A stretch of 63,872 nucleotides of DNA, the filler included. It is 4 parts of 4 records of this genome, joined end to end, with 100 filler letters (N's around TTAATTAATTAA, not from the genome) between each part and the next. Parts side by side here need not be neighbours in the genome. Positions count along the whole stretch, not along the records: positions 34,513 to 55,568 come from SRR20825010_119; 3 more parts are not named here. One strand, 5' to 3'. Shown here piece by piece: positions 19,237 through 63,872 of the stretch. Made by a program: the position numbers and the translations under genes. Numbering within the stretch: the first letter of the stretch is position 1; each line of letters opens with the position of its first letter. The notes under the pieces were generated by a model that worked only from the letters and a program-made list of their open reading frames with translations, ran no database searches and was not told the origin of the DNA.

Positions 19237-19269
19237 AAAGTTAAAGATAGCAGAATTAAATAGGAGGAT

Positions 19270-29895: not shown

Positions 29896-30279
29896 TTAAT
29901 TCTGAATTAGCTTCCTACTATTTGGTCTAAAATACCAAGAAATAATTGTTAATGCTACTAATAAAATAGGACCGAAAAGGGTGATAATTTCATCTCCAAC
30001 TATTAAATGTGAAATGGCAGCCCCCGTCATTGCAAAAAAGAATCCAGCATAAGCCCATTCTTTTAGTAACGGAAGTTTAGGGAGTAAAACTGCTATAGTT
30101 CCTAAAATTTTCCAAACACCAAGAATGGTTAGTAAATAGGTAGGAAAACCTAATGCGTTAATGACTTCAACTTCTTCTTCCAGCTTTATTAACTGTACAA
30201 TCCCTGTGGATACCATTCCTAAAGCAAGCCAAATCGTGGCGATCCAATAGATTATTTTGTTGCGTTTTGTTGCGCCCAT
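29896..30279 (-). CDS. DoxX-like membrane protein
   Basis: Four TM helices; LGFPTY; LKEWAYAGFFF; SHL. Confidence 0.88.
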   Translation of the reverse strand: MGATKRNKIIYWIATIWLALGMVSTGIVQLIKLEEEVEVINALGFPTYLLTILGVWKILGTIAVLLPKLPLLKEWAYAGFFFAMTGAAISHLIVGDEIITLFGPILLVALTIISWYFRPNSRKLIQN

Positions 30280-30281
30280 AA

Positions 30282-30752
30282 TTACTTATTTAAATTATTT
30301 ATAATATCTTCTAATCGCTGATGCGCCATATCAAGACCAATAGCAAAAGGTTTCTTTAATAACTCGTTTCTAATTTCAACCGATTTAAAAATGATATGCA
30401 TTGTTAATTTGCTTGTATCATTTGTAATGGTTTTAAAATTCAAAAATTCGAGTTGTGGGGGAAAAGAAAACACATCCATTTCAAACGTTCTAACAATCAT
30501 TTCATTGGGTATAAACGTGTGAAATGTACCCTTACCGCTAAACATAAGATCTCCTTTAGGACTTCGTGTTTCAAAATGATACTTCCCATATTCCTTAAAC
30601 TCAAAGTGCACTAACTTGGTTCCCATCCATTTTTCAAACAATACTTTATCTTTATAAGCTGTAAAAAGAGATTCCACAGGCAAATCAAACTCCCTTGTTA
30701 TAAGTAATTCCTGTTTCCCCTCTTCCGCTGTAATTTTTGTTTTCTGTTCCAT
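30282..30752 (-). CDS. SRPBCC/AHSA1 domain protein
   Basis: ITREFDLPVESLFTAY...KWMG; IVRTFE; follows the ArsR gene. Confidence 0.85.
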   Translation of the reverse strand: MEQKTKITAEEGKQELLITREFDLPVESLFTAYKDKVLFEKWMGTKLVHFEFKEYGKYHFETRSPKGDLMFSGKGTFHTFIPNEMIVRTFEMDVFSFPPQLEFLNFKTITNDTSKLTMHIIFKSVEIRNELLKKPFAIGLDMAHQRLEDIINNLNK

Positions 30753-30799
30753 TGTTTATTTTGTTTTGATTGATGCTTTTTACTCACTGATTGTTCATT

Positions 30800-31129
30800 T
30801 TATTCTTTGCCTTCGTGAATCTTTGATTTCATAACAGCTTCCAAGGTATTAAAGCGGTCGTCCCACATTTTCCTAAAAGGCTCAATAAAATCAGCTATTT
30901 GTTTCATCCCATCGGGATTTAATTGGTAATAAATCTCTCTCCCCTTTTGTTCTTGTTCCAATAATTCACATTCGGTAAGAATTTGAATGTGCTTGGAAAT
31001 GGTTTGCCTAGAATAGTTAAAGTTTTCTGCAATTGCACTTGGTGTCATAGCACTTGCTGCAACCAATGTAACTATTGTTCTCCTTGTTGGGTCGGCTATG
31101 GCTTGAAAAACATCCCTTCTTAATTTCAT
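30800..31129 (-). CDS. ArsR/SmtB family transcriptional regulator
   Basis: [35 protein letters not shown] at 31129. Confidence 0.92.
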
Positions 31130-31131
31130 AA

Positions 31132-31175
31132 TGCAGTTATTTGACTGCAAATATAAGTGCAGTTATTTAGTTGCG
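31132..31175 (-). promoter_or_regulatory. Tandem palindromic operators flanking a TATATTTG -7 promoter box
   Basis: TGCAGTTATTTGACTGCA (31132-31149) and TGCAGTTATTTAGTTGCG (31158-31175) directly upstream of the ArsR ATG. Confidence 0.75.
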
Positions 31176-31288
31176 CAATATTTTAAAAGGAAAAGTACTT
31201 TCTAAATTATGTTTTGAGGTACGAGCGAACGAAAAGAAACTACGGTAGGCAAATAGATGTACGGTAAATAATAGTCTTTATCATCTTA

Positions 31289-31537
31289 CTAAATTATAAG
31301 TTCTATTTTAATATTGTTTAATTTTCCAAAGTTGAGAACTCCTAATATGTCAATAGAGTTATTACTTTCAATCCTTAATACTTTATCACAATCTTCTAAA
31401 TCGAAATTGATTTGGTAATCGGAATATAACTGATTAAGATCAGACACTATTTGGTTTGCCAATTGTTGATTGTTTACGCTAGTTTTGAAAATCTCAACTA
31501 TGGCTTGTGGTGTCTTTATAGGTTCATTAACTTTCAT
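31289..31537 (-). CDS. Conserved small Bacteroidota protein (FKT...NFDLEDCDKVLR)
   Basis: 82 aa; recognisable motif of an uncharacterised family. Confidence 0.7.
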   Translation of the reverse strand: MKVNEPIKTPQAIVEIFKTSVNNQQLANQIVSDLNQLYSDYQINFDLEDCDKVLRIESNNSIDILGVLNFGKLNNIKIELII

Positions 31538-31599
31538 TTTCTTCAGGTCTCATAATTATAAAAGCATCTTGTTTTTATAATGATTACTTTGGAAATGAT

Positions 31600-31977
31600 T
31601 TATACTTCCATACAATACGAGGTTATGCTTTTTATTTTTTCTCCTTTTGCACTTTGAAAGACATAAAAATCTGAAAACGCATATTTTTTTCCGTTTACCA
31701 TTGTCATCCATCCATTTGCTGCACCTTCTTTACCGTGAGATAAGATTTGGTCTAATTTCAATTCAGATGCTTTTACGGCTTGCATTTCTTCTAATTCTTT
31801 TACAAAATTTTCCTTTCCTTCAATTTTTTTATCCCCAATAACATTCCATACTATGTCATCTGTTACATTTTTAGTTAAAAAGGCAACATTTCCTTCAGCA
31901 AAAGCAATATTATATTGTTTTAAAAATTCCATTTTAGGTGAGTTCCCACAGTTTGGGCTTGATACTATTTTAGTCAT
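31600..31977 (-). CDS. SnoaL-like / NTF2 family protein
   Basis: NCGNSPK; VTDDIVWNVIG...GKE; HGKEGAANG. Confidence 0.8.
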   Translation of the reverse strand: MTKIVSSPNCGNSPKMEFLKQYNIAFAEGNVAFLTKNVTDDIVWNVIGDKKIEGKENFVKELEEMQAVKASELKLDQILSHGKEGAANGWMTMVNGKKYAFSDFYVFQSAKGEKIKSITSYCMEV

Positions 31978-31994
31978 TTTTATCGCTTTTAACC

Positions 31995-32411
31995 TTACAT
32001 ATTCTCATTATACAATAAGTTAAATTTATGTCCATCTGGGTCGGTAAAAACACAAACATAAAAGCCATTATCATCATAAAAAGCTTTTCTGTCTTTATTA
32101 GAATCGAATAAAATTTCACCTCCTGCCCTGTATATTTCAGTTACACAATGGTTGTATTCTTCTTTGCTTTCTACAGCCATAGAAAACATTACTTCATTAC
32201 CTTTTTTTAAATCTGCAGATTTGCTTTCCAGACTCGACTCAAACTTTTCTTTTTTGAAAAAGTGAATCACAAAATTATCAAGACCAAAAAAGAAGCTTAC
32301 CAAATTATTTGATGGGCTTCCATTTAACTGAAAACCTAAAGTTTGATAAAACACTTTAGTTTGTTCAATACTTTCTACACCAAGGTTTGCCCAAATTTGT
32401 TTTGTTTTCAT
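31995..32411 (-). CDS. VOC (glyoxalase-like) family protein
   Basis: IWANLGV...FYQTLGF; FTDPDGHKFN. Confidence 0.85.
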   Translation of the reverse strand: MKTKQIWANLGVESIEQTKVFYQTLGFQLNGSPSNNLVSFFFGLDNFVIHFFKKEKFESSLESKSADLKKGNEVMFSMAVESKEEYNHCVTEIYRAGGEILFDSNKDRKAFYDDNGFYVCVFTDPDGHKFNLLYNENM

Positions 32412-32495
32412 ATTATCTTATTTGTATAAACCATTAGCTACATCCACGTCCTGAATCTGCTAATCTTTTCTCCTCAAGGTGTTTAAGAAAAAAAA

Positions 32496-32894
32496 TTACT
32501 CCAAATTCAGTTGCCAAGAAACCCCAAATCTATCCTCTACAAAAGCAAATTGTTTACTAAACCCATAGCTATCCAAAGGCATTTTTACATCCCCATTTTC
32601 TGATAGTTTTGCATAAAGATGTTCAATTTCCTCTTTTGTGTTACATTCCACCCAACTTGAAACTGCAGGAGTAAAACTCCATTCGTGTTTAATAAAACTG
32701 TCGCTACATATAAACGGCGTTCCATTGAGTTCAAAAATTGCTTTTACAATTGTTCCTTCCAATCCCGGGCCATCTTTACCGTAACGCTGTACATTAATTA
32801 CTTTGGAATTATCGAACAGTTCTACATAAAAATTCATTGCTTCTTCAGCGTTGTTTCCCTGAAATGTTAGAAAAGTGGTGATTTGCTGTTTCAT
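32496..32894 (-). CDS. VOC family protein (PhnB / 3-demethylubiquinone-9 methyltransferase-like)
   Basis: FLTFQGNNAEEAMNFY; FTPAVS; EDRFGVSWQL. Confidence 0.88.
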   Translation of the reverse strand: MKQQITTFLTFQGNNAEEAMNFYVELFDNSKVINVQRYGKDGPGLEGTIVKAIFELNGTPFICSDSFIKHEWSFTPAVSSWVECNTKEEIEHLYAKLSENGDVKMPLDSYGFSKQFAFVEDRFGVSWQLNLE

Positions 32895-32915
32895 AGGTTT
32901 GTTTTAAACATAGGT

Positions 32916-33311
32916 TTAATTTTCGCAATACGTTTTTAATCGCAACAAAAACATCGCCCAATTATAATTACACCAACCGTAAAATTCGGTGCGTTTTTTC
33001 CAATTATAATGTTTTAACCTTAACGTTGTGGTATTGTTTTTTTCAGTCAGCTCAAAAGACACTTTGGTTCCAATCCACTCTTTATCAGAAGCCGTACATT
33101 CCCACACAATTTTGTTGTTTTCTACAAGCTCAATAATTTTAAACTTTGTGATATACCCTTCGTCAAAATCAAATTCATTAATAAAACCAACTTCAGGTTT
33201 CACTTTTAGTTTTTTTGTCCACACTTGGCCTAATCCTTCTTCTGAAGTTAGTGTTTTATAAACCCTTGCTTTAGGTGCTTTTATGTAATTAATATGTTCT
33301 ATGCTTTCCAT
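32916..33311 (-). CDS. SRPBCC domain protein
   Basis: IKAPKARVYKTL...VWT; EWIGTKVSF; WAMFLLRLKTYCE. Confidence 0.85.
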   Translation of the reverse strand: MESIEHINYIKAPKARVYKTLTSEEGLGQVWTKKLKVKPEVGFINEFDFDEGYITKFKIIELVENNKIVWECTASDKEWIGTKVSFELTEKNNTTTLRLKHYNWKKRTEFYGWCNYNWAMFLLRLKTYCEN

Positions 33312-33321
33312 ATTTATCTAT

Positions 33322-33705
33322 TTAATTCATTGAATGAAATCCAATAGAATTTCCTTCGGTATCCTTGATAATGGAAACAAATCCGTGTTCTCCAATGGCC
33401 ATTTTGGGTTGTATAATTTCAGCTCCATTTTCAACAGCTCTATTTTCTAATACTTTACAATCCTCACAACCAAAATAAACGAGACTTCCATTAGTAGAAG
33501 GTTTTACTGCTTCCATTTTTACCAAAGCACCAGCTGCACCATAATGTTCCATATCGTTCGGGAAGCCCTTCATCTGAACAGATGGATTTGTTGGATCGCT
33601 CATAGCCTCCATTGAAATTTGAAGTACTTTTTCGTAAAACTTTGCAGCTCTATCCATATCATTTACGTATATCTCGAACCACACTGAAGGATTAAATTTT
33701 TTCAT
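33322..33705 (-). CDS. VOC family protein
   Basis: WFEIYVNDMDRAAKFY; DTEGNSIGFHS. Confidence 0.88.
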   Translation of the reverse strand: MKKFNPSVWFEIYVNDMDRAAKFYEKVLQISMEAMSDPTNPSVQMKGFPNDMEHYGAAGALVKMEAVKPSTNGSLVYFGCEDCKVLENRAVENGAEIIQPKMAIGEHGFVSIIKDTEGNSIGFHSMN

Positions 33706-33768
33706 CCTTTGATTTTTTTAATTGATAGTATAACAAAAATGAAAAAAGGAGATCAAAAAAAACTTGTC

Positions 33769-34362
33769 CTATGGCAAGTTTTCTGCTTTAGACATCACTT
33801 CTTTTCTTATCCTACTCAAAGACGTGTCCGTAATTCCTAAATATGTAGCAATGTATTTTAAAGGTACTTCTTTAATAATTTCTGATTTTTCTTGTACCAA
33901 GTTTAAATATTTTTGCGAAGCACTCTGAGTGTGCATTGTAACGGCACGATGCTTTGCCATAAAAAGCTGGTGAGACATCCAAGTGCGACCCCATTCTGTA
34001 AAACCATCTATAGTGCTATACAAATTTTGAAAATCGTTAAACTCAATTTTATAGACTTCACAATCCGTTAAAGCTTGAATGGTTTCTTTTGAAGGAATAC
34101 GAAGAAATAAAGAAGCTACTTCAATTAAAATATCATTAGGGCTAAAAAAGTCAGTTGTAATTTCATTTCCTTTATAATCAATAACATACGATCGGAATAA
34201 ACCTTTTTTTATAAGATAATATTCGTTGCTTATTTTTCCTTCACTGAGAATGGTATCATTTTTAAGAAACTCAACTTTTGTATGGGCATCAATAATGCTT
34301 GTATAGTCTTCCTTTTGAATGTTGGGGTGGTTGTATGTTTTTTCAAAGAAATCAGTTTTCAT
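33769..34362 (-). CDS. Crp/Fnr family cNMP-binding regulator
   Basis: LSEGKIS...GLFRSY; PLKYIATYLGITDTSLSRIR. Confidence 0.9.
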   Translation of the reverse strand: MKTDFFEKTYNHPNIQKEDYTSIIDAHTKVEFLKNDTILSEGKISNEYYLIKKGLFRSYVIDYKGNEITTDFFSPNDILIEVASLFLRIPSKETIQALTDCEVYKIEFNDFQNLYSTIDGFTEWGRTWMSHQLFMAKHRAVTMHTQSASQKYLNLVQEKSEIIKEVPLKYIATYLGITDTSLSRIRKEVMSKAENLP

Positions 34363-35189: not shown

Positions 35190-35434
35190 GGTTTGTCTCC
35201 TTCGGGACCGAGGAAGCATTGGCTCAGAAACATTGGCCTCTCAGTGCGCCTTGCATTGCATTGTTCGCGAGTGCCCGGACACGTTTGGTCAAAATGCTGG
35301 AATTTGAGCGATTCACTTACTCACTCAGCGATTTCCGGTCCGGTTTGTTCCGCTCGCGGAAACTTTGCGGCACCTCGCCAAACGCGTTTGCTAGAATGGG
35401 CACATCCCGCCTACTCCCCCGCCTGAGTTCACCC

Positions 35435-36880
35435 ATGATTCGCATTTTCCGTCATGCCGGTTTGTCACGTCCGTCAAAATGGATGTGCGGAATCGCCCGC
35501 ACCAACCAGTGCCGCGACGATCAGCACCGCATCACCCAAAGCGACACCCACCAAAACCGATCGCTTCTGTGCGGATTCTTGATTGTGACATTGGCAATCC
35601 CAACGATTGGGCTGGCTGAATCATGGCCGCAATTCCGAGGGCCACGAGGTGACGGTATCGTCACCAAAGGCAATCCACCGGTTCAGTTCGGCGAAGACAA
35701 AAACCTCACTTGGAAGTCCGATCTGGAAGGAAAGGCTTGGTCCTCACCCGTCATCGCTGACGGAACGATTTGGTTGACCTCCGCTGTGGAGATTGTTCCC
35801 ACGGAAGACGAACGCGTGGACTTGTTAAGAAAAACCGATAATGAAGAACGACAGTTCAAACAACTCGCGATCGCGAAAGCCATCGAACTGAAAGTCTTCG
35901 CGGTTGATCTTGAAACTGGGCAATTGAAACAAACGATTGAGCTGACCACCGTTGAACAGCCCGATGCAATTCATTCACTCAACAGCTACGCATCGCCGAC
36001 ACCGGTGATCGATGGCAATCGCCTTCTTTGCCACTTCGGAACCTTTGGAACGTTCTGCCTTGATCGGACCGACGGCAAATTGATCTGGGAGCGGACGTTG
36101 CCGCTGAAGCACGCCGTGGGCCCGGGCAGCTCGCCCATCGTTCACGATGGGAAAGTGATCCTGATTCAGGACGGACTGGAGCGGCAATATGTGATCGCCC
36201 TGAACGCGGAAACTGGTTCGACGGAATGGGAAACCGATCGCCCGCCAATGGACGCACCCACCGGTGATCAGAAGAAAGCCTACTGCACCCCCATTGTCGT
36301 TACCGACTCAAACGGTCGTGAGCAATTGCTTTGCATGGGTTCGCAGTGGATGGTTTCGTACAACGCAAAAACGGGCGAAGAGTTTTGGCGTCTCTATCAT
36401 GGCAAAGGATTCTCTGTTGTTCCTCGCCCCATCTTCGATGGCAATGCGGTCTACTTCTCGACCGGGTTTGGCAAACCACAACTCTGGGCGGCAAAGGTCG
36501 ATGGTTCCGGTGACGTCACCGACTCTCATGTGCTGTGGACGGTGAAGAAGAGCATCCCAGCGAAGCCGTCACCAATCGCCGTCGATAGATTGCTATTCGT
36601 GGTCGACGACAACGGAGTCGCATCCTGCATCGACAGCGAGGACGGCACCAACGTTTGGTCCAAACGCTTGGGCGGAAAGTTTTCTGCCTCACCGATAATG
36701 GCAAACGGCCGAATGTACTTTTGTAATCATGACGGCGAGGTATTTGTCATCAAACCCGGCACGGAGTGTGACATCGAAGTGACCAATCAGATCGACGGAC
36801 AAATCATGGCATCCCCCGCCGTGATCGGCGATGCTTTGATTTTGCGAACCGCGACGTCGCTTTACCGATTCGATCGGTAA
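35435..36880 (+). CDS. PQQ-like beta-propeller protein (planctomycete BamB-like family)
   Basis: ESWPQFRGPRGDG after a signal segment; repeated SSP/TP blades and G-x-x-x-W docking motifs; start uncertain. Confidence 0.88.
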   Translation: MIRIFRHAGLSRPSKWMCGIARTNQCRDDQHRITQSDTHQNRSLLCGFLIVTLAIPTIGLAESWPQFRGPRGDGIVTKGNPPVQFGEDKNLTWKSDLEGKAWSSPVIADGTIWLTSAVEIVPTEDERVDLLRKTDNEERQFKQLAIAKAIELKVFAVDLETGQLKQTIELTTVEQPDAIHSLNSYASPTPVIDGNRLLCHFGTFGTFCLDRTDGKLIWERTLPLKHAVGPGSSPIVHDGKVILIQDGLERQYVIALNAETGSTEWETDRPPMDAPTGDQKKAYCTPIVVTDSNGREQLLCMGSQWMVSYNAKTGEEFWRLYHGKGFSVVPRPIFDGNAVYFSTGFGKPQLWAAKVDGSGDVTDSHVLWTVKKSIPAKPSPIAVDRLLFVVDDNGVASCIDSEDGTNVWSKRLGGKFSASPIMANGRMYFCNHDGEVFVIKPGTECDIEVTNQIDGQIMASPAVIGDALILRTATSLYRFDR

Positions 36881-40548: not shown

Positions 40549-43500
40549 ATGCCATCCACCGATCGAACACCGTTGTTCGGCCAATCGCGTTTCCTCCGCG
40601 TCGCTGGTTTGTTGCTAGCGATCATCGCGGCCTCGAACTGGCCGGCGCATCGCCTGGTTGCTCAGGATGAGCCTGTCGAAGATTCCGCGGCTGTTGCTCT
40701 GTATGCAGACGCGGCAAACTTCCAAACCAACGGTGCGATCGGATTGGCGGTCGATACGTGGAGGAAATTCCTGAAGGAATACCCGAGCAGCCCGCTGGCG
40801 TCCAAAGCATCGCACTACCTGGGCGTTTGCTACATGCAACAGGACACGCCCGATCTGAAAGCTGCTGCCGAAGCCTTCAAAACCGCGCTCGAAGACACCA
40901 AATACGACCTTCGCGAAGAAAGCTTGTCCAACCGAGGTTGGTGCCTTTACGCCGCTGCCGGAACAGGCGAAGAAGCGGATCCAAAATTGCTCCGCGAATC
41001 AATCGCGACCTACGACACGCTGATCAAAGAAATCCCTGATTCGCGGTTGCTCGACCGAGCGTACTTCTATCGAGGTGAAGCCCAGTATGCACTCGGTGAA
41101 TTGGACAAGGCCATCGAGTCCTACAACGCGATGATGAAACTTGATGACATCGCGAGTTCCGCATTGCGGTGCGATGCCCTCTACGCTCGAGGCGTCGCGT
41201 TGGAGGAACAAAAAAACTACGACCAAGCCCAATCGTCTTACCAACAATTGCTCCAGGCATGCGCCGACTCGGACTTGGTAGTCGATGTCGAGATCCGCAT
41301 GGGCGACATGCATTTGTTGCAGGGCGAAATGCACAAAGCCGTCGAGCGTTTCGACTCGGTCGCAACCAATGCAGACGCTACCGCGGAAGACAAGGCTTAC
41401 TCTTTTTTCCGCCAAGGCTACGCCTACGCCCAAGACGGTGATCCAACGAAAGCGTCCGCGTCATACGAAAAGCTTCTGACACAATTCCCTCAATCGCCTT
41501 ACGCTGCCGCGGCCACCTTGGCTTCCGCTCAAACGCTCTATCAAGCAGGAGACCTTCCGGGCGCCGCTTCGCGATTCCGCGACGTCCTCCAAGGGACGGA
41601 CCCTGTCGCCGCAACCGAATCGGCACACTGGCTGGCCCGAATTGATTTGGGCGTCGCCAACCGCGATCCATCCAAGACAGCAGAAGCGGCCAAATCGGCC
41701 TACGATGTCGCATCAGAATTGCTTGCCAAAGGTCCTCACGGAAGCTTCGCCGTCGCTCTCAAACTGGATGCGGCGGAAGCATTGTCATTGCAACCAGACC
41801 GATTGAACGATGCTTTTGAACAATACCAATCCATCGCAAGCGAACATTCGGACCATCCCCTCGCACCACGCGCGCTCTACAACGCGGCATTCGTTGCACT
41901 TCAACTTGGGAACACCGAACAAGCCGTGAAGCTGGCTGATTCGTTCGAATCGAAGTTCTCGAGTGATCCGCTCGCACCGGATGCTTTGTTCGTCGGTGCG
42001 GAGGCTTTGCTCGCGTCCGGCGAGGCATCTTCCGCGGCGGAGCGTTACCAATCATTGATTGATGACGCCAAACACCGTGATCACCCGCAGCGCGCAACCT
42101 GGATTTTACGTGGGGCAACGGCTTGGAAAGCAGCCGGCGAACCTACAAAGACAGCCAAGTTGGTTCGTGAAAATTTGGAGGCGATGAATACGCCGGAGCA
42201 GAAGGCCGAGGCATTGCTGCTGGCTGGCCAAGCAGAACTGTCCAGCGGCGATGCAGCTCAAGCCGCCAAAACATTTCAGGCCAGCCGAGAGGCTGCGCCA
42301 CAGTGGGCTCGTTCGGACGAAGCTTTCCTGATGGCCGGTCAATCGCAATTGACCGCAGGAAATCGCGAGGCGGCGGAGGGTATTTGGAAAGAGCTCATTC
42401 GCAGCAATGGCGAAAGTCGCATGGCTGACCAAGCCCGATACAAACTGGGGCAATTGGCCAACGGCGAACAGCAATACGCTGCCGCAATCGAATACTTTGA
42501 ACCGATCCTGGCATCCAAACGGGATGCTGGCTTATTGCCGTTTGCCCGCTATGCCAAAGGCATGGCCGAACTGCAATCACAACAACACGAGCGTGCCGCC
42601 GAGTCTTTCTCAGAGCTGATCGACCAGAACCCCGATCACACGTTGAGCGACGATGCGCTGCTCTCGCGAGGGATTGCTTATCGACATCTGAATCGCGAGG
42701 CCGATTCGCGAAACGACTTGAACGCGTACTTGGATTCGAAGCCAACCGGCAACAACCTTGGACATGCCTTGTACGAACTGGCGTTGTTGGACCAAAACGC
42801 ATCGCAAACGGTTCAAGCGGCTGAATCCTTGCAACGGATCGTCGATGAAGTCCCTGACTATCCCGACATGGACAAGGTGCTTTACGAACTCGGTTGGTCA
42901 CTCCGCGAAAGCGGAAAGGATGATCAAGCCCTCACCAAGTTTGAACAACTGATCGCGAAATACCCGGACAACGCCTTGGTCGCCGACGCGGCCTACTTTG
43001 TCGGACAAGATCACTATCGCAATTCGAAATGGGGCGACGCGGCGGACGCATTTCAAATCGCAGCCGACAAATCCAATGACTTGGACTTGAAAGAAAAATC
43101 GCTGTATCGGTTGGGGTGGTGCTTTTACAAGCAACAAAAGTACGCCGAAGCGGAAGCCGCCTTCAAACGTCAATACGTCGAAGTCCAGCAGGGCGGTTTG
43201 CTGCTGGATTCAATGATGATGATTGGCGAATCTCGCTTCAAACAGGAACAGTACGAAACGGCTCTGCGGGCTTACACCAAGGCACGCGAGAAGATTGAAG
43301 CCGACAATGATTCCGCGAAAACGGTCCGTGACAAAGCCGAACGGCAGGTTCGCGAATTGATCCTGCTGCACGGAGGGCAAAGTGCAGCCCAATTGGGTCA
43401 ATATGAGGACGCGATCGGATGGTACGACGCTCTCCGAGAAAGATTCCCGGCCACAACCTATCTTCCCCAAGTGTTCTATGAGATCGGATTCGCCGCCCAA

Positions 43501-43890
43501 AACGCGGGAGACGACGAAAAGGCATTGAAATTCTATTCCGAGGTCGCGGACAATTTCCGAAGCGAAATTGCCGCTCGGGCTCGGTTCATGATGGGTGAAA
43601 TTCACTTCGCGAACAAAACGTTCGACAAAGCGATTCCAGAATTTCAGCGAGTCATGTTTGGATTTGGGGCGGACAAGGCGGACCCAGTCATCAAGAATTG
43701 GCAAGCCAAGAGCGGGTTTGAAGCGGGTCGGTGTGCGGAACTGCTCCAGCAGTCAGCGCAAACGGATGCTGCCAAAGCAAAGGCAGCCAAGTTCGCCAAG
43801 GATTTTTACCAGTACGTGATCGATCAACACCCCGGGCACGAATTGGCCGCCAAGGCCAAGCAGCGGGCGGAGGCACTGAAAGCACCGTGA
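40549..43890 (+). CDS. Large periplasmic TPR protein (CpoB/BamD-type repeats)
   Basis: Signal peptide; many TPRs with xxxYPxSxxxxxAxYxxG turns over about 1070 aa. Confidence 0.9.
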   Translation: MPSTDRTPLFGQSRFLRVAGLLLAIIAASNWPAHRLVAQDEPVEDSAAVALYADAANFQTNGAIGLAVDTWRKFLKEYPSSPLASKASHYLGVCYMQQDTPDLKAAAEAFKTALEDTKYDLREESLSNRGWCLYAAAGTGEEADPKLLRESIATYDTLIKEIPDSRLLDRAYFYRGEAQYALGELDKAIESYNAMMKLDDIASSALRCDALYARGVALEEQKNYDQAQSSYQQLLQACADSDLVVDVEIRMGDMHLLQGEMHKAVERFDSVATNADATAEDKAYSFFRQGYAYAQDGDPTKASASYEKLLTQFPQSPYAAAATLASAQTLYQAGDLPGAASRFRDVLQGTDPVAATESAHWLARIDLGVANRDPSKTAEAAKSAYDVASELLAKGPHGSFAVALKLDAAEALSLQPDRLNDAFEQYQSIASEHSDHPLAPRALYNAAFVALQLGNTEQAVKLADSFESKFSSDPLAPDALFVGAEALLASGEASSAAERYQSLIDDAKHRDHPQRATWILRGATAWKAAGEPTKTAKLVRENLEAMNTPEQKAEALLLAGQAELSSGDAAQAAKTFQASREAAPQWARSDEAFLMAGQSQLTAGNREAAEGIWKELIRSNGESRMADQARYKLGQLANGEQQYAAAIEYFEPILASKRDAGLLPFARYAKGMAELQSQQHERAAESFSELIDQNPDHTLSDDALLSRGIAYRHLNREADSRNDLNAYLDSKPTGNNLGHALYELALLDQNASQTVQAAESLQRIVDEVPDYPDMDKVLYELGWSLRESGKDDQALTKFEQLIAKYPDNALVADAAYFVGQDHYRNSKWGDAADAFQIAADKSNDLDLKEKSLYRLGWCFYKQQKYAEAEAAFKRQYVEVQQGGLLLDSMMMIGESRFKQEQYETALRAYTKAREKIEADNDSAKTVRDKAERQVRELILLHGGQSAAQLGQYEDAIGWYDALRERFPATTYLPQVFYEIGFAAQNAGDDEKALKFYSEVADNFRSEIAARARFMMGEIHFANKTFDKAIPEFQRVMFGFGADKADPVIKNWQAKSGFEAGRCAELLQQSAQTDAAKAKAAKFAKDFYQYVIDQHPGHELAAKAKQRAEALKAP

Positions 43891-44846
43891 GATTTCTTTC
43901 CAACGACCGCCGACGACAGCGCACGACATTGGTCATCGCTATCCTGTGGGCCGCATTGTTGATCACCGCAGTACCGGGACAGTTCTTGTCGCAATCCGTG
44001 TCGGCTCAGGACGCTGCGGAACCGGCGGGTGCGACCGAGGGCATCGTCGATGCTTCTGACATCCAGTCGGTCATGAACGATGAACCGATTCAACAACCAG
44101 GATCTGACCAACCATCAGGAATCGATTTGCTGTCGTTGATCGCTCGCGGCGGTCGCTTCATGATTCCGATCGGATTGATGAGCATGTTGGTTGTGACGTT
44201 GTCGGTTGAGCGAACCCTGTCGCTACGCACTGAAAAGATCCTGCCACGGTCGCTCGTCAATCAGATCAGCGACTTGGCAGCGACGCACGAAACGTTTCCA
44301 CCCAGCACCGCACAAGAGATTTGTGTTGAAAACCCTTCGCCGGCCGCTCGTGTGATATCGGCGATGCTGATGCGAACCGGTCAACCACTCGGCGACATTG
44401 AACGGACCGCCAGCGATGCCCTGCAACGCGAAGCGGATCGTTACGCCGGCCCCGTTCGTTGGCTGACACTCGCCGCGGCCGCGACGCCGTTGATGGGGCT
44501 GCTCGGAACGGTGTGGGGCATGATCGTTGCCTTCCATGAATCGAGCACACTGACGGCAGATCGCAGCCGCAGCGAACAATTGTCAGAAGGGATTTACACC
44601 GCACTGGTGACCACCCTGGCTGGACTGGCCGTTGCAATTCCCGCCGCTATTTTGGCTCAGTATCTCGAGAACCGCATTGCAAAATTGTTCCATCGCATTG
44701 AGGAGATGGCATTCGTCATCGCTCCGGGATTGGTGCGGTTCGTCGGTCGATCTCGAATGGATGCCGAAGGACAACTGCGTCCACTTGATAATGGTGCGCC
44801 ACCGCCGATGGCCATTCATTCGCCGCCTCCCGTCACCACTTCGTGA
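43887..44846 (+). CDS. MotA/TolQ/ExbB proton channel protein
   Basis: GTG start overlapping the TPR stop (GTGA); PLMGLLGTVWGMI; GIYTALVTTLAGLAVAIP; N-terminal signal/extension. Confidence 0.93.
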   Translation: MRFLSNDRRRQRTTLVIAILWAALLITAVPGQFLSQSVSAQDAAEPAGATEGIVDASDIQSVMNDEPIQQPGSDQPSGIDLLSLIARGGRFMIPIGLMSMLVVTLSVERTLSLRTEKILPRSLVNQISDLAATHETFPPSTAQEICVENPSPAARVISAMLMRTGQPLGDIERTASDALQREADRYAGPVRWLTLAAAATPLMGLLGTVWGMIVAFHESSTLTADRSRSEQLSEGIYTALVTTLAGLAVAIPAAILAQYLENRIAKLFHRIEEMAFVIAPGLVRFVGRSRMDAEGQLRPLDNGAPPPMAIHSPPPVTTS

Positions 44847-44852
44847 TCGATC

Positions 44853-45275
44853 ATGGCTGTTCAACTCAAACGATCCAACGTCGCCGGGACACTCAGTCTG
44901 ACCCCGTTGATCGACGTGGTTTTCCTGTTGCTGATCTTCTTTCTGGTCACCAGCGAGTTTGAAGATGAGGAACGTCAGCTCGACATTGTGCTGCCATCGG
45001 CAACCAGCGCCGTGCCAATGACTAGTAAACCTCGCGAGGTCGTCGTTGATATCGACGCTGATGGAACGGTCTTCCTCCGCGGGAAAGCTACCCCGCTGAA
45101 AGAGCTCGAACTACTGCTGCAAAAAGCGGTCGCGAGCAACCCGACCAACCAAACGGTCGTGATCCGCGCCGACCAGAACACCAGCTTTCAGCCGGTCGTG
45201 AATGTGATGGATGTGTGCAATCGCACCGGTGTGAGCGACTACTCGGTTTCCACCAAAGATGGGCCGGCAGGCTGA
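44853..45275 (+). CDS. ExbD/TolR family protein
   Basis: LTPLIDVVFLLLIFF with the essential Asp; VVIRAD; VVNVMD. Confidence 0.95.
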   Translation: MAVQLKRSNVAGTLSLTPLIDVVFLLLIFFLVTSEFEDEERQLDIVLPSATSAVPMTSKPREVVVDIDADGTVFLRGKATPLKELELLLQKAVASNPTNQTVVIRADQNTSFQPVVNVMDVCNRTGVSDYSVSTKDGPAG

Positions 45276-48021
45276 TCAATTGAGTAAAGACCCTAACCTA
45301 TTTGACGAGATCTCAGATCCCGATGACGAGCGCATGTGGCCACTCGACGTCGCGTTGATTTCGTTGACCGGTCTGATTCTTTACATCATCTTGGGTTATC
45401 TGTCGTTTGATGACCCACGTCCGATGTACAACGCGTGGACCTACGTGATTGCGGTGCCTTTGATTGGTGCTGTGTCCGCATTCACGTTGCACCAGATCGC
45501 GTCGAAATACGTTCAGAAGTCGTTTCAGCTCGGTTTCCTCTTCAGCATCTTCGTGCACTTGTTGTTGGTCGTATTGGCGGTGCAGTGGATGATCTTTCCA
45601 CACTACTTCCCCGAGGCATTTGCCGGGGTGAAGCCGGACCGATCTCCGATCCGCAAAACGGTTCCTGAATACCTGTTTCAAAAGCCAGACGAATCCAACG
45701 CGGTGACTCCCGATTGGTCGCAACCCGTCGACGCAGAAACAACGTCGCAGGTCATCCCTCTCGAACAACGACAGATGCCGCCGGTGAAACGTTCGGCACC
45801 TCGACTGGAAGTTCCGCGTCCCAACGCAGAGCAACCGCGAGAACCAGAAAAGTTTTTGATGGAACGCGTGCAGCCAGAAATGGCAAAGCCACAACCATCC
45901 GACTCGCCTTCCCGGTTGGCTCGACGTCGCCAACCAACCGAGCCTGCTCCTCAATCGCAATCGGCACCGCGAGCACCCGAGATTGATACGTCGGTGGCAC
46001 CATCGGCGGATCAATCGCCGACAGAGAAATCAACGTCCGCGGCGGCAAAACGACAGCGCAGCGGAGCGTCGATCGCCACGTCGGCTGATATGGCGCCGAC
46101 ACCCAGCCGCGATCCGGCGCCGGCGCCCGTGCCGACAATGCGTGCGATGGCGGAATCGTTGCCGACGGTTGGATCGGCAGGGATTGCCCGCGAACGAAGC
46201 CAACGCCAAAGACCGACCAGGCAATCCGCGGCGGGAGCCGCTCCAACTCCGCCGACCGTTTCGATCGCGAAGATCGAGGTCGACGCCGAGCGGATGCTTA
46301 CACCAGAACTCGCACCTGTTCAGCGAACCAGCCAAGCGGTGGGCGCAAACGTGACACTGTCACCGGGTGAATCCGCCATGGCGGCACTCGACAATGCTCC
46401 GACGACGGGGCAGGGCGATCTACCGCAAGCTGCTCGCTTGGCCACGATGGCGGGAATCCCGGATGCCACCAATCAAGCACTCAGCCGGCCTCGATCAGCC
46501 AAACGACGAAGCGTTGGACAACGAAGCGGTTCGACGGGACCGGGGCCTGATTCGGGGGCGATTGCAGCGATGCTGGCTGATGCTTCGGCTGACAACACTG
46601 ATGCAGAAGCATCCGACGCAGCCACGGATCGCGACCTCAGCGATGACGCTCGCTCACGCGACTCAGCCCGCAACACGGAGTCTTCACTGAACGAATTGGC
46701 GATGACCGCGGATCCGGTCTTCGACCTGAACGCCCCGGAAGGTCCGGCCGGGCTATCCGTTGAACGAGCCGAAAAGGCCGGTATTGTCCCATCCGATGAA
46801 CCGGTGGAAATCGCGGCTTTGGACCTTACCCGTGGCCCACGCCAACGACGTGATGTCGGGGGCCCGGTCACACCGGCGGGATTGTCAATCGCAGCCGTGG
46901 AGCAATTCAGCCGGCGAGTCCAACGCACCAACGGTGGCGCCGCACCAGCTCCCGCCGGGATGGTCGGCCCAGCCACGGAAGAAGCCATCGAGCTTGGCCT
47001 CGCCTATCTCGCTTCCTTGCAAAACGAAGACGGCAGCTGGTCCCTTCAAGGGCACGGTGAAGCGGTGATGCTGCAATCTGACACCGCCGCAACTGGCATG
47101 TGCTTGTTGGCGTATCAAGGTGCTGGCTACACACACCGCCAACATCAATACGCACCGGTTGTCGCCAAAGGACTGAAATTCCTGATCGATAACCAACGCA
47201 CTAATGGTGATTTGTATCGCCGAGAGAACCCGTTGAGCGATCAAAACGTCGCGTTCTATTCGCACGGCATTGCATCGTTGGCGATGTGCGAAGCGTACGG
47301 CATGACACAAGACAGCGAACTGCGTGAACCGGCTCAGATGTGCCTCAACTACATCGAAGCAACACAGCATAAACAACGCGGTGGATGGCGATACACACCG
47401 CAAGTCAGCAGTGATACGAGCGTCACCGGTTGGATGATGATGGCACTCAAAAGCGGCGAGCTGTCTGGCCTGGATGTTGAACCGGACACCTATGCCGGAA
47501 TCAATCGCTGGTTGGAACTGGCCAAAGCCAGCCCCACGGAACGCGACCGATACCGATACAACCCGTTCGCTCCCAACACTCCCGCACAAGCGCACGGACG
47601 ACGCCCATCGCCCACAATGACTGCGGTCGGAATTTTGATGCGAATGTACTCGGGTTGGAGCCGGGAGAATGAAGACATGCAGTCAGCAGCCGACTACATC
47701 GCTAAGTTCCCGCCCAGCATCGGAACGAATCGGGCGCCACAACGAGACACCTATTACTGGTACTACGCCACTCAGGTCATGTTCCACATGGGCGGCGAGC
47801 ACTGGGACAACTGGAATCAATACCTCAATCCAGTCCTGATCGACAGCCAGATCAAACGAGGACCGGAAGCGGGCAGTTGGGATCCTGAATTGCCCGTGCC
47901 GGATCGATGGAGTGCACATGGCGGACGCTTGTACGTCACCGCCATGAACCTACTGAATCTGGAAGTCTACTACCGGCATTTGCCGATCTACGAAGAAACC
48001 GGCGCTCAACCAGAGTTCTAA
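45259..48021 (+). CDS. Membrane-anchored protein with a TonB/TolA-like TM, a Pro-rich linker and a C-terminal prenyltransferase/squalene-cyclase-like alpha/alpha barrel
   Basis: Three N-terminal TM segments, the last FSIFVHLLL; long P/A/R/S linker; QW-like repeats (QNEDGSW, QRTNGDL, QHKQRGGW, QIKRGPEAGSW). Confidence 0.85.
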   Translation: MGRQADQLSKDPNLFDEISDPDDERMWPLDVALISLTGLILYIILGYLSFDDPRPMYNAWTYVIAVPLIGAVSAFTLHQIASKYVQKSFQLGFLFSIFVHLLLVVLAVQWMIFPHYFPEAFAGVKPDRSPIRKTVPEYLFQKPDESNAVTPDWSQPVDAETTSQVIPLEQRQMPPVKRSAPRLEVPRPNAEQPREPEKFLMERVQPEMAKPQPSDSPSRLARRRQPTEPAPQSQSAPRAPEIDTSVAPSADQSPTEKSTSAAAKRQRSGASIATSADMAPTPSRDPAPAPVPTMRAMAESLPTVGSAGIARERSQRQRPTRQSAAGAAPTPPTVSIAKIEVDAERMLTPELAPVQRTSQAVGANVTLSPGESAMAALDNAPTTGQGDLPQAARLATMAGIPDATNQALSRPRSAKRRSVGQRSGSTGPGPDSGAIAAMLADASADNTDAEASDAATDRDLSDDARSRDSARNTESSLNELAMTADPVFDLNAPEGPAGLSVERAEKAGIVPSDEPVEIAALDLTRGPRQRRDVGGPVTPAGLSIAAVEQFSRRVQRTNGGAAPAPAGMVGPATEEAIELGLAYLASLQNEDGSWSLQGHGEAVMLQSDTAATGMCLLAYQGAGYTHRQHQYAPVVAKGLKFLIDNQRTNGDLYRRENPLSDQNVAFYSHGIASLAMCEAYGMTQDSELREPAQMCLNYIEATQHKQRGGWRYTPQVSSDTSVTGWMMMALKSGELSGLDVEPDTYAGINRWLELAKASPTERDRYRYNPFAPNTPAQAHGRRPSPTMTAVGILMRMYSGWSRENEDMQSAADYIAKFPPSIGTNRAPQRDTYYWYYATQVMFHMGGEHWDNWNQYLNPVLIDSQIKRGPEAGSWDPELPVPDRWSAHGGRLYVTAMNLLNLEVYYRHLPIYEETGAQPEF

Positions 48022-55498: not shown

Positions 55499-55568
55499 TC
55501 ACAAGCCGACGCGTGACGGCCTGTTGGTTGAGGCGAGTTCACAACCCGACGCGTGAGCGAGGGACCCA
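55499..55568. repeat. REP-like repeat copies at the contig edge
   Basis: TCACAAGCCGACGCGTGA and TCACAACCCGACGCGTGA(GCGAGGGA) 40 bp apart. Confidence 0.6.
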
Positions 55569-55668
55569 NNNNNNNNNNNNNNNNNNNNNNNNNNNNNNNN
55601 NNNNNNNNNNNNTTAATTAATTAANNNNNNNNNNNNNNNNNNNNNNNNNNNNNNNNNNNNNNNNNNNN
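55569..55668. other. Artificial contig spacer
   Basis: N44-TTAATTAATTAA-N44. Confidence 0.98.
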
Positions 55669-56304
55669 AGTACCTTTTACCGTACCTGATACTTTTGACA
55701 CCCCGATTCTTCGTTTGTAACGCACTGGTACTTCGATATATGACATTTTTTTTCTCAAAATTTTCAATTGCATTTCCACTGTCCAGCCATAAGTGGTGTC
55801 CTGCATTCTTAATTCTTTGAGCTTTTCATATTTTATCGCCCTAAAAGGTCCTAGATCCGTAAATTTTGACCTAAAAAACAATCGCATTAAAAATGTGGCC
55901 AATTGGTTCCCAAAAACCTGCTGTGGGGTCATGGAACCAGGTTCGCGAAGTGATTTTTTTCGCGCTCCCACCACAAAATCGATGTCATTTTCCAAAATTG
56001 GGGCGACAATCTTATCCAATTCCTCTGGATAATCTGAATAATCTCCGTCGATAAATACGATGATGTCGGGTGTTTTAGATCGTTCGGATATGTAATTTAA
56101 TCCTCTTAAACAGGCGAACCCATAGCCCTTGCGGTTTTCCGTGATTACAGTGGCGCCAGCTTTTTCTGCATTGGCTACGGTATCGTCTTCGGAACCGTTG
56201 TCCACGACCACAATTTCGGACACATGGTCGGGAATTTCCGAGACCACCAAACCAATGGAATCTCCTTCGTTGATCGCTGGGATGATGACCTTGATATCCG
56301 CCAT
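55669..56304 (-). CDS. Glycosyltransferase family 2 (DPM-synthase-like), 3' end truncated
   Basis: IIPAINE, VVDNGS, FIDGD, TDLGPFRAI, RIGVSK. Confidence 0.92.
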
Positions 56305-56396
56305 TGGTCAGATGTTGTTTTGGTTAGTGTTAGAGCTCGCCAAAACTAAAATTTTCCAAGGATATTTGATTGAAAATCTTCAAAAAGAAGGGAAAT

Positions 56397-58007
56397 CTAT
56401 TTTTTGTTCACCAATGTCATCAGGTCCACATCATTGCCCAACAGCACTTGATTGCTATCGATTCTACCTTCCAACGGACCGTTTTCCAGTTTAAGGACGC
56501 CCCGTGGACAAACTGCCGAGCAAATTCCACATCCCACACAGCTCGACCGAACGATGTTCTCTCCTTTCTGGGCGTAGGCCCGCACATCGATGCCCATTTC
56601 GCAGTATACCGAACAGTTGCCACAAGAAATACATTGCCCACCATTGGTGGTAATTCTGAACCTGGAAAACAATTTCTGCTGAAACCCTAAAATGGCGGCC
56701 ATGGGGCAACCGAAGCGGCACCACACCCTGCTCCCAAAGATGGGGTAGAACCCTGTTCCGATGACTCCAGAAAAAATGCTTCCGATCAAGAAAGAGTACG
56801 ATTTACGAAGTGTTTCGGATTTAAAAAGAAAAATTTGTCCGTCCCCGCTAAAAAAATGAAACCCGATCAGCGCTATAATGATCACAAAATAACCGATGGC
56901 TCCGTACTGCGCATCTTTCTGGAGTTGATTTCTTTTAAAAATCATGGCCCAACCGAACACCAAGGTCAGTAAAACGGCCACCCCGATTAAAAAAGAGCTC
57001 TTGGTCAGCCAATATTTACTGGTATCCGTTCCCAAGTAGGAATAAATGACCGCGGTGGTCATCAAAGTCACAAAAACTACGACACTGTGCACCACCCAGC
57101 GTTCTACTTTCCATGCAAATGTAGATTTATCGCTCAACTGCCTGAATGAATCCCCAGCGGTTTCTGCCAATCCACCACACCCGCAGACCCAAGAGCAGTA
57201 CCATCTTTTACCATATTTGTAGGTAAGGATGGGAGTTATCACAAAAATGGAGAGGATGCCAAAGATCAATAGGGCAAAACCGATTTCCCCCGAACTTAAA
57301 AACGCTTTAATGCGATACCCTTCAAAATTATAATAGTTGAGCGGCCAAATATTTTTGAGGTCGTAATAAGGCAAACTGCCCCCGTCCAAAATTTTATCGC
57401 CGTTCAAACGGGCCATCAATTCTGGGATGATGAACGCAAAAGCGGTTTGAAAGAACATGACGCTCCAAGTGCGCAACCTTTCGTATCGGTTATGGCGATA
57501 TTTCCAAAGGAACTTGATGCCAAAGGCCAAAATGGCCACCGTATAAAGTGTGCCGTAAACAAACCACTGACTGGCGGGGTTGCCGCTCAAAAATTTACTG
57601 AGCGGGTCAAAAAGCCCAATAACCCCTTTATTGTCGCCATCGTTCACCAGACCGAGATATTCAGGATAAAAATAGAGTACAATGTAGAAACCTGTCAAGG
57701 ACAAACCTGCCACCCATCCCCATAAACCGCGACTGGAAATCGACTTGAACCAAACACCATCATTTTTGATCCCAGGGATTTTTTTGGAATAGGCATCCCA
57801 GGAAAACCAAACAATCCCGACGGTGATAGCCAAAAGAGACAAGGTCAACCATAAGGTCCTATTCGGAAAATTGACATTGAAAACGGCCAAAAGCAGAATG
57901 CCCAGCCCAGATAATCCCAAAAAGACAGCGAGTTTTTGACTTATGCTCAAACTTTTTGGTGGTTCGCCTGTCAGGGCCATGCTTTTATGATAGGTTTGAC
58001 TGTTCAT
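56397..58007 (-). CDS. Polytopic membrane ferredoxin (NapH/MauN-like 4Fe-4S binding protein)
   Basis: Multiple TMs; CSWVCGCG, CRFGCP; CISCGNCSVYC and CVGCGICSAVCP. Confidence 0.88.
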   Translation of the reverse strand: MNSQTYHKSMALTGEPPKSLSISQKLAVFLGLSGLGILLLAVFNVNFPNRTLWLTLSLLAITVGIVWFSWDAYSKKIPGIKNDGVWFKSISSRGLWGWVAGLSLTGFYIVLYFYPEYLGLVNDGDNKGVIGLFDPLSKFLSGNPASQWFVYGTLYTVAILAFGIKFLWKYRHNRYERLRTWSVMFFQTAFAFIIPELMARLNGDKILDGGSLPYYDLKNIWPLNYYNFEGYRIKAFLSSGEIGFALLIFGILSIFVITPILTYKYGKRWYCSWVCGCGGLAETAGDSFRQLSDKSTFAWKVERWVVHSVVVFVTLMTTAVIYSYLGTDTSKYWLTKSSFLIGVAVLLTLVFGWAMIFKRNQLQKDAQYGAIGYFVIIIALIGFHFFSGDGQIFLFKSETLRKSYSFLIGSIFSGVIGTGFYPIFGSRVWCRFGCPMAAILGFQQKLFSRFRITTNGGQCISCGNCSVYCEMGIDVRAYAQKGENIVRSSCVGCGICSAVCPRGVLKLENGPLEGRIDSNQVLLGNDVDLMTLVNKK

Positions 58008-58114
58008 TGTTTGTTGTTTCTTTGTTCTGATATTTTCGAATGGGACATGACCTCTCCAGTTTTTCGTACAATTTAAACTCTTTAATAAACCATTAACCCT
58101 GAGCCATCAACCAA

Positions 58115-59464: not shown

Positions 59465-59592
59465 GGGTTGGGTTTGATTGTTCTATGTGTCGAGGTTTAT
59501 CGTAAAAACTTAACAGAAAGATGAAATTTAATAAGAATTTGGCGGTCGGATGATGTTTTAAAATGATTATTTTTAAAGCGTTCGCAATCATT

Positions 59593-60606: not shown

Positions 60607-60706
60607 GAACAAGTAAAGGTTTGTCGGAAATTTTGGACTAATTCGTAACCATGCTATATGTTTTTTCCCCATATTTGCAATACATCCCACCCAAAAACAT
60701 ACAGTA

Positions 60707-62662: not shown

Positions 62663-62663
62663 A

Positions 62664-63629: not shown

Positions 63630-63872
63630 AGTTCTTTGATTAGTTCTTTGAATAGTTTGATCATTTTGGGTTCCGTTTGCCCTGCAATCTTCAAAATTTC
63701 CTGTACTTCGACAGGTTGCAGGTTGTCGGGGTCGCATTCATCGGTCAATACCGATACCGCTACAATGGGTAGTCGTAAATGATTCGCAACAATTACCTCG
63801 GGGACGGTGCTCATTCCCACGGCGTCGGCACCCATGATCTTGAGCATTCGGTATTCTGCCTTGGTTTCCAGT
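63626..63872 (-). CDS. Purine nucleoside phosphorylase (trimeric PNP/MTAP family), 3' part only
   Basis: LETKAEY, GADAVGMSTVPE, SVLTD; runs off the window end. Confidence 0.9.
   Translation of the reverse strand, partial: LETKAEYRMLKIMGADAVGMSTVPEVIVANHLRLPIVAVSVLTDECDPDNLQPVEVQEILKIAGQTEPKMIKLFKELIKEL

Follow-up and report, generated by a model that had tools for sequence, protein, structure and literature searches.

A conserved four-gene envelope module of Pirellulales planctomycetes with ExbB- and ExbD-like motor subunits, a giant TPR protein and a candidate TonB/TolA-like transducer ending in a QW-repeat toroid

Until 2025, no routes other than TonB and TolA were known for the action of ExbB/TolQ-type motors on the outer envelope. 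CpoB (YbgF), encoded in the tol-pal operon, is a small periplasmic protein with one TPR (tetratricopeptide repeat) domain. Transducers ending in a vWA domain have been reported in PVC (Planctomycetes-Verrucomicrobia-Chlamydiae) bacteria, Bacteroidetes and Proteobacteria (Williams-Jones et al. 2025; PMC12204202). That paper describes a linker of about 100 amino acids, a motor box and an SHLS-type transmembrane (TM) segment, defined as S-x3-H-x6-L-x3-S, and in PVC bacteria places these transducers downstream of a TPR-tolQ-tolR-tolR set. Here, we describe a four-gene module lying at positions 40549-48021 (+ strand) of a DNA window of 63,872 nucleotides (four parts of one genome joined end to end with filler letters). 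The module encodes a TPR protein, an ExbB-like and an ExbD-like subunit, and a 920-amino-acid gene 4 product that we consider a candidate force transducer of a type resembling TonB and TolA.

The four-gene set that a first-pass annotation had noticed in this interval is confirmed, since four closely packed open reading frames (ORFs) are present on the + strand, as follows (AF2, AlphaFold2 model).

40549..43890, + strand: gene 1, TPR protein of 1113 amino acids (ORF scan, TPR families).
43887..44846, + strand: gene 2, ExbB/TolQ/MotA-family subunit of 319 amino acids, counted from the GTG at 43887 (PF01618).
44853..45275, + strand: gene 3, ExbD/TolR-family subunit of 140 amino acids (PF02472).
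45259..48021, + strand: gene 4, candidate force transducer of 920 amino acids (ORF, alignment, AF2).

The genes are as tightly packed as annotated (GTGA overlap, 6-bp gap, overlap), with a reservation for the last junction. The GTG of gene 2 (43887) shares a GTGA with the stop codon of gene 1; the longest ORF of gene 2 begins at 43731, and the start at 43887, which gives a signal-peptide-like N-terminus, is the most plausible one. A gap of 6 bp separates the ExbB-like gene from the ExbD gene. Gene 4 overlaps the ExbD gene by 17 nt only if it starts at the ATG at 45259, the alternative ATG at 45334 (M26), used by several orthologues, leaving a 58-nt gap. This tight spacing suggests translational coupling.

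Using phmmer against 1.84 billion cluster representatives (50% identity), we found 12,221 representatives of the gene 4 family at E ≤ 1e-3, of which 3,917 at E ≤ 1e-30, and all matches bearing a source name came from Planctomycetota. The nearest database protein is 99% identical to the gene 4 product. A genome scan provided 80 loci from Pirellulales-type planctomycetes or unclassified Planctomycetota metagenome-assembled genomes, the synteny of which was ascertained by tblastn with the window proteins. As expected from the first-pass annotation, the TPR, ExbB and ExbD genes are found on the same strand upstream of the toroid (barrel) gene in 53 of the 55 loci whose upstream flank reaches 5500 nt or more (exceptions, L058 and L079). 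The same holds for eight of the nine loci with 1500-5500 nt (exception, L077), and the flank is too short to judge in the 16 loci with less than 1500 nt. The outer flanks are variable, as pyrG and a DUF1844 gene recur in close relatives only, and the DEAD helicase and glcF (downstream) genes never do, so that the conserved unit is exactly these four genes. The arrangement, together with the TM motif described below, recurs across the family and is thus more than chance. In 35 of the 80 loci (for example L007:2371-3366, - strand), five of them in the distant clade, the TPR gene is directly preceded by a divergent gene for a NAD-dependent sugar-nucleotide epimerase/dehydratase; absent from the window, this gene gives a weak hint of a link with envelope polysaccharide synthesis.

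The identities initially proposed for the giant TPR protein, ExbB and ExbD are all borne out by Pfam matches above the cut-offs. Gene 2 matches MotA_ExbB (PF01618) with 86.5 bits for a cut-off of 22.9 (E = 1.6e-24), and its product comprises a periplasmic extension besides the signal-peptide-like N-terminus. The closest solved structures are TolQ (2.4e-7) and ExbB (1.8e-5), and the gene 2 segments GLLGTVWGM and ALVTTLAGLAVAIPA align with the corresponding segments of solved TolQ, the ExbB GTVWG and TT..GL..AIPA segments lining up likewise. Judging from these alignments, gene 2 belongs to the MotA/TolQ/ExbB family and retains the Thr-bearing segments of the channel. Its scores against the NCBIfam equivalogs are far below the cut-offs (TolQ, 54.3 versus 221; ExbB, 34.4 versus 206; and MotA also), which places it as a family member belonging to neither the TolQ nor the ExbB orthologue group. 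Gene 3 matches ExbD (PF02472) with 109.5 bits for a cut-off of 25.4 (E = 1.6e-31), its profile retrieves the solved structures of ExbD (3e-17) and TolR (1.5e-8), and its TM aspartate D21 is shared by all 29 orthologues compared; it is assigned to the ExbD/TolR family. None of the four proteins matches the PADLOC defence models (Zorya-type motors and others), and no other transducer candidate was found in the cluster among the window proteins scanned.

The gene 1 product consists almost entirely of TPR units, as shown by its matches to TPR_6 (3e-53), TPR_16 (5e-52) and TPR_2, all above the Pfam cut-offs, and it also matches YfiO/BamD-like proteins (2.9e-25). Against the NCBIfam model TIGR02795 (YbgF/CpoB) it scores 256.5 for a cut-off of 90.1 (4e-77), through 12 repeated stretches. 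Its N-terminus is signal-peptide-like and, judged by eye, devoid of a lipobox cysteine. Gene 1 is thereby predicted to encode a secreted protein of TPR units resembling CpoB and BamD, which is probably a periplasmic scaffold. No tolB or pal gene was found near gene 1 in the neighbourhood of the cluster in the window.

The gene 4 product can be divided into the following parts (pLDDT, predicted local distance difference test).

45337..45606, + strand: three TM helices, residues 27-47, 59-84 and 87-116 (AF2, pLDDT 75-88).
45544..45558, + strand: S96-x3-H100 in the third TM helix (TM3), proposed motor-docking motif (alignments of the family and of the loci).
45661..45672, + strand: V135-P136-E137-Y138, conserved juxtamembrane motif, candidate 'motor box' (151-sequence alignment).
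45619..46884, + strand: disordered Ala/Pro/Ser/Arg-rich linker, residues ~121-542 (AF2 pLDDT <50).
46969..48000, + strand: predicted QW-repeat (alpha/alpha)6 toroid, residues ~571-914 (AF2, Foldseek, family matches).

The first-pass annotation had given the fourth protein a single N-terminal TM helix, which has to be corrected to three, as predicted by a hydropathy scan (residues 31-49, 59-77 and 90-108) in agreement with AF2. The string FSIFVHLLL is indeed present, in TM3, with S96 at 45544 and H100 at 45556 as annotated. We analysed the conservation of this anchor by aligning the first 190 residues of the gene 4 protein with the best 150 family matches. The His column holds H112, N25, D2, Y1 and Q1 (141 aligned representatives), and the Ser column holds S111, C18, G7 and A3 (151 rows, 10 of which have a gap). 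Among 34 aligned loci the TM3 histidine is retained in 33, L051 carrying an asparagine yet keeping the motor genes, and the small residue ahead of it is S in 22, G in eight, C in three and A in one. The conservation of S-x3-H therefore holds for the histidine (33/34), but not for the serine, which is simply the commonest small residue at its position (22/34). The S/small-x3-His motif sits in TM3 at a depth similar to that of S16/H20 in TonB. In TonB, Asn can reportedly replace His20 without loss of function, which, if correct, would fit the H/N pattern at TM3. Two basic residues and a glutamine ahead of TM3 are also conserved, and so is the VPEY segment about 20 residues past TM3 (P in 104, E/D/Q in 129, Y in 105 and F in 13 of the 151 sequences).

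The orientation of the anchor was deduced from its charges, averaged over 137 sequences. No segment is more basic than the TM2-TM3 loop (mean of 2.64 K+R versus 0.61 D+E), and the TM1-TM2 loop is slightly acidic (0.96 K+R versus 1.45 D+E). According to the positive-inside rule the TM2-TM3 loop would be cytoplasmic, so that TM3 would cross the membrane outwards and place the linker and the toroid in the periplasm. We therefore infer an N-in/C-out topology for this inner-membrane protein, in keeping with the periplasmic location foreseen for the barrel in the first-pass annotation.

The linker is likewise as annotated, several hundred residues long and rich in Pro, Ala and Arg. Residues 115-565 comprise 16% A, 12% P, 10% S and 9% R, and AF2 gives a pLDDT <50 to nearly all of residues 121-542, that is, a linker of about 420-450 amino acids. 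In the best 150 of the 12,221 family matches, the protein length ranges from 516 to 2293 amino acids and the toroid is always C-terminal, which implies that the linker length is highly variable.

Beyond the linker, the annotated start of the QW-repeat alpha/alpha barrel (about 46980) agrees well with that of the predicted toroid, near residue 571 (~46969). The AF2 model of residues 529-920, built from a 65-sequence alignment, is all-alpha with a pLDDT of 91.5 and a predicted TM-score of 0.91. QW-type repeats begin at residues 579 and 637 (regular-expression search) and align with those of squalene-hopene and oxidosqualene cyclases; through them, a toroid-only profile matches triterpene cyclases among the PDB sequences (2.5e-4 to 5e-4). 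Foldseek against the PDB (E ≤ 1e-3) returned 83 matches, whose TM-scores lie at 0.5-0.58, among them the single-domain squalene-hopene-cyclase (SHC)-like protein 8paj as the top match, glucose/cellobiose 2-epimerases, AprG, MstE, GH76 mannanases and SHC. A mix of families was obtained when 32 members were scanned singly against Pfam (E ≤ 0.01; best member E-values in brackets): SQHop_cyclase_C in 32 (5.9e-11), Pec_lyase in 30 (1.5e-7), SQHop_cyclase_N in 16, GH88 in 14 (7e-6), LANC_like in 12, and Prenyltrans and GlcNAc 2-epimerase in one each. The toroid neighbours in the ESM Atlas are planctomycete and verrucomicrobial clusters with this same mix. For the window protein itself every Pfam match is below its gathering score, that to SQHop_cyclase_C reaching 17.2-20.4 bits for a score of 26.1. 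Taken together, these matches identify the toroid as a predicted six-hairpin-clan domain with QW repeats.

DxDD and DDxxD motifs define the terpene cyclase classes. A motif scan of the toroid found no DxDD, DDxxD or CxEQ, the only D.DD match of gene 4 being at residue 20 in the N-terminus. The string nearest to a thioester C.EQ is CEAY (residues 677-680), so that the toroid does not qualify as a thioester (TED) domain like those of alpha-2-macroglobulin and complement; nor does it as a prenyltransferase beta subunit, as Prenyltrans (PF00432) matched a single member of the 32 with an E-value of 0.0029. Hence, nothing in the sequence marks the toroid as a working cyclase or prenyltransferase, and a lipid or prenyl substrate would have no specific support. 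The first-pass annotation had put forward a prenyltransferase/SHC-like effector acting on a lipid or protein substrate; what we find instead is a clan-level match that includes Pec_lyase and GH88, and the absence of DxDD and DDxxD makes lipid chemistry unlikely. As cyclase motifs are missing and the matches to glycan families are nearly as wide as those to cyclases, a glycan or a protein is a likelier ligand for the toroid than a lipid. Invariant Trp, Tyr, His, Asp and Arg residues abound in the toroid, and no other part of the module is as well conserved: in a distant clade it is 55-59% identical to that of the window, as compared with 36-55% for ExbD, 40-49% for ExbB, 31-38% for the TPR protein and 27-44% for the anchor.

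Neither TonB_C (PF03544, PF13103) nor the TolA C-terminal domain was found in gene 4 at E ≤ 0.01 (Pfam, NCBIfam). A TolA match of the full-length profile (5.4e-9) was rejected as homology, its bias being 42 and its alignment lying mostly in the linker. Shorter proteins sharing the anchor gave 10 matches, three of which are named partial and the rest of which are probably fragments, and none has a Pfam family; it is worth noting that this search needs shared 5-residue words, so that distant anchors could be missed. The proposed TonB/TolA-like transducer is thus sustained by its architecture, His motif, topology and gene context, but not by sequence homology: the gene 4 product is TonB/TolA-like in these respects and a member of neither family.

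From these lines of evidence, we propose, with slightly better than even confidence, that the module operates in a TonB/TolA-like manner. It would use the proton motive force (pmf) to transmit force from an ExbB/ExbD-type motor, by way of the His-bearing TM3 and the long disordered tether, to a periplasmic toroid, with the TPR protein as a scaffold. In this scheme, ExbB and ExbD would assemble as a 5:2 pmf-driven motor, TM3 of the gene 4 protein would dock on the rim of the ExbB pentamer via its histidine, and the VPEY segment would engage the periplasmic domains of ExbD. The activity of the motor would pull or re-orient the linker spanning the wide planctomycete periplasm, so that the toroid may hold or remodel a partner at the cell wall or the outer membrane, and the TPR protein may act as a scaffold or adaptor by analogy with CpoB for TolA.

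Several observations weigh against this proposal. In the anchor, 12 of the 34 loci have G, C or A instead of the Ser of S-x3-H; the L and the second S of the SHLS motif are unmatched (H+7 is A107 and H+11 is M111); the anchor has three TM helices, that of TonB/TolA one; and an anchor-only profile (residues 26-180) retrieved no TonB or TolA among the PDB sequences at E ≤ 10. In the loci, L058 has a 1265-amino-acid FG-GAP repeat gene with a weak TPR-like match (L058:381-4178) in place of the TPR gene, followed by ExbB, ExbD and a 1694-amino-acid barrel protein downstream as usual. L079 encodes an 882-amino-acid three-TM barrel protein (L079:8456-11104) that keeps S-x3-H and has no TPR, ExbB or ExbD gene upstream, its neighbours being genes for an EEP-family protein, a nitroreductase and an HtrA-like protease. 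L077 also has a three-TM barrel gene (barrel match 4517-5611) with none of the three genes upstream, as judged by tblastn only. The L079 and L077 genes may be orphan copies or paralogues. No conserved gene for an outer-membrane, cell-wall or peptidoglycan-binding partner occurs near the module in the 80 loci, and so strong a conservation of the toroid would be compatible with an enzyme too.

This last point leads to the principal alternative, which we regard as rather unlikely, that the gene 4 product is a periplasmic enzyme (lyase-, hydrolase- or epimerase-like) or a lectin, tethered to the membrane and directed at glycans that are imported or belong to the envelope, the motor and the TPR protein positioning or gating it instead of passing force on to a distant partner. 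It would account for the invariant Trp, Tyr, His, Asp and Arg residues of the most conserved part of the module, for the member matches to Pec_lyase (30/32), GH88 (14/32) and GlcNAc 2-epimerase (one), for the 2-epimerases, AprG and GH76 standing level with cyclases in Foldseek, and for the divergent sugar-nucleotide epimerase/dehydratase gene of 35 loci. However, the catalytic residues of these families could not be mapped onto the toroid, the window protein is below all Pfam gathering scores, the window has no such epimerase neighbour, and an enzyme of this kind would not obviously need a motor or a linker of 300 to more than 1500 residues. Far less credible still is a pmf-powered prenyltransferase- or cyclase-like catalytic domain acting on a lipid, which we consider most improbable. 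The QW repeats, the triterpene cyclase profile matches, the presence of SQHop_cyclase_C in all 32 members and the top Foldseek rank of 8paj speak for it, but they are set against the lack of DxDD and DDxxD, the single weak PF00432 match, TM-scores of just 0.5-0.58, and a predicted periplasmic site at the tip of a long hydrophilic linker, remote from a substrate embedded in the membrane.

It is also conceivable that the gene order is conserved while gene 4 is uncoupled from the motor, ExbB and ExbD serving a transducer encoded elsewhere. The L079 and L077 barrel genes, which have no adjacent motor genes, and the failure to detect TonB/TolA homology are in line with this idea. We nevertheless judge it very unlikely, as 53 of 55 loci keep the arrangement across lineages whose flanks have all changed, the gene spacing suggests translational coupling, the His-bearing TM helix is conserved and the cluster offers no other transducer candidate.

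If force transduction through the gene 4 protein is accepted, its cellular role can be considered, starting from the planctomycete envelope. A study of planctomycetes (Boedeker et al. 2017; PMC5394234) reports an enlarged periplasm into which dextran is actively taken up by an unknown route, together with press-stud contacts between the outer and the cytoplasmic membrane at crateriform structures. We put forward as a long shot, doubtful but worth stating, that the module is a planctomycete-specific, pmf-driven trans-envelope machine. Owing to its very long and variable tether, a toroid gripping glycans or fibres would be able to extend over the width of the enlarged periplasm, and the machine would energise a process that lacks a known motor in these bacteria. 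If so, candidate processes would be the active uptake of whole macromolecules into the periplasm and the press-stud contacts at crateriform structures, both reported in PMC5394234 and neither with a known mechanism.

Transposon sequencing (Tn-seq) data on Planctopirus limnophila may also be relevant. The supplement of PMC10632474 gives low insertion indices, of 0.006-0.018 for Plim_3131 (COG0811), Plim_3133 (COG0848) and Plim_3134, the latter listed as unknown with a non-zero value in the Planctomycetia column only, and of 0.005 for Plim_0306 (COG1657, 'squalene cyclase'), two genes away from a PulG-type pseudopilin gene. All four genes appear in the table behind Fig. S3, presumed to be the essential-gene set. 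Should Plim_3131-3134, candidate counterparts, be the same module, the latter may be essential.

In the rest of the window, the GC content shifts abruptly at ~34,500 and ~55,500, being 0.53-0.60 inside and 0.29-0.45 outside (1-34500 and 55500-63872), and the four-gene module lies wholly within the high-GC block (34500-55500). These shifts would fit a window made of several joined contigs, which may come from different organisms. At the start of this block, 35219-36880 is a PQQ_2/BamB-like beta-propeller gene, upstream of pyrG. Planctomycete-type genes are found in the flank too, namely PSCyt1/PSCyt2/PSD1 with DUF1501 (16012-20781). A run of small genes (29896-34362, - strand; GC ~0.3) follows a gene for a cNMP-binding regulator and encodes DoxX_2, two AHSA1/SRPBCC, SnoaL-like and three glyoxalase/VOC-type proteins; it resembles a cluster for stress response or detoxification and is unrelated to the four-gene module.

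Concerning novelty, full-text literature searches found no published description of a barrel-type transducer, and the available part of PMC12204202 makes no mention of a squalene-cyclase-like or prenyltransferase-like domain. The claim that the machine is undescribed may hold for the barrel type but needs qualifying, as analogous vWA-ended transducers are already reported in that paper. The vWA-ended transducers showed that the effector domain is exchangeable, and the four-gene module would bring in a third kind of effector, an (alpha/alpha)6 toroid carried by an anchor of another sort, with three helices. Its family numbers about 12,000 clusters (50% identity) in a phylum with a poorly understood envelope biology, and the module is a concrete and genetically tractable candidate for the delivery of energy to the planctomycete outer envelope.

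Compared with the known systems, the toroid shares with class II terpene cyclases (SHC, MstE, 8paj) the QW repeats and the alpha/alpha toroid fold, and differs from them in lacking DxDD, in a similarity limited to the clan level, and in being a single domain on a periplasmic tether. With the glycan-active six-hairpin families (PL10 Pec_lyase, GH88, GH76 and AGE-type 2-epimerases) it shares the fold, with a Pfam and Foldseek similarity comparable to that of the cyclases, whereas no gathering score is reached by the window protein.

Similarly to TonB, the gene 4 protein adjoins an ExbB/ExbD-family motor and combines S-x3-H in a TM helix, a Pro-rich periplasmic linker, a C-terminal globular domain and a predicted N-in, C-out topology; unlike TonB, it has three TM helices and no TonB_C, and no TonB-dependent receptor gene lies nearby. 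As in the TolA-TolQR-CpoB system, there is a linker-rich transducer, a motor subunit (gene 2) whose nearest solved structure is TolQ, and CpoB/YbgF-like TPR units, whereas gene 4 lacks the TolA C-terminal domain, the cluster has neither TolB nor Pal, and CpoB is about a quarter of the size of the 1113-amino-acid gene 1 product (the full-length NCBIfam CpoB model has 263 positions).

The vWA-ended transducers differ from the gene 4 protein in several respects: the latter ends in an all-alpha (alpha/alpha)6 toroid with no vWA match, its linker has about 450 amino acids (up to ~1700 in relatives) instead of about 100, it has a three-TM anchor, and one ExbD-like gene stands here in place of a heterologous tolR pair. 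Both types nevertheless occur in Planctomycetes, and both follow the order TPR, tolQ/exbB-like, tolR/exbD-like and transducer, but for the second tolR-like gene of the vWA sets.

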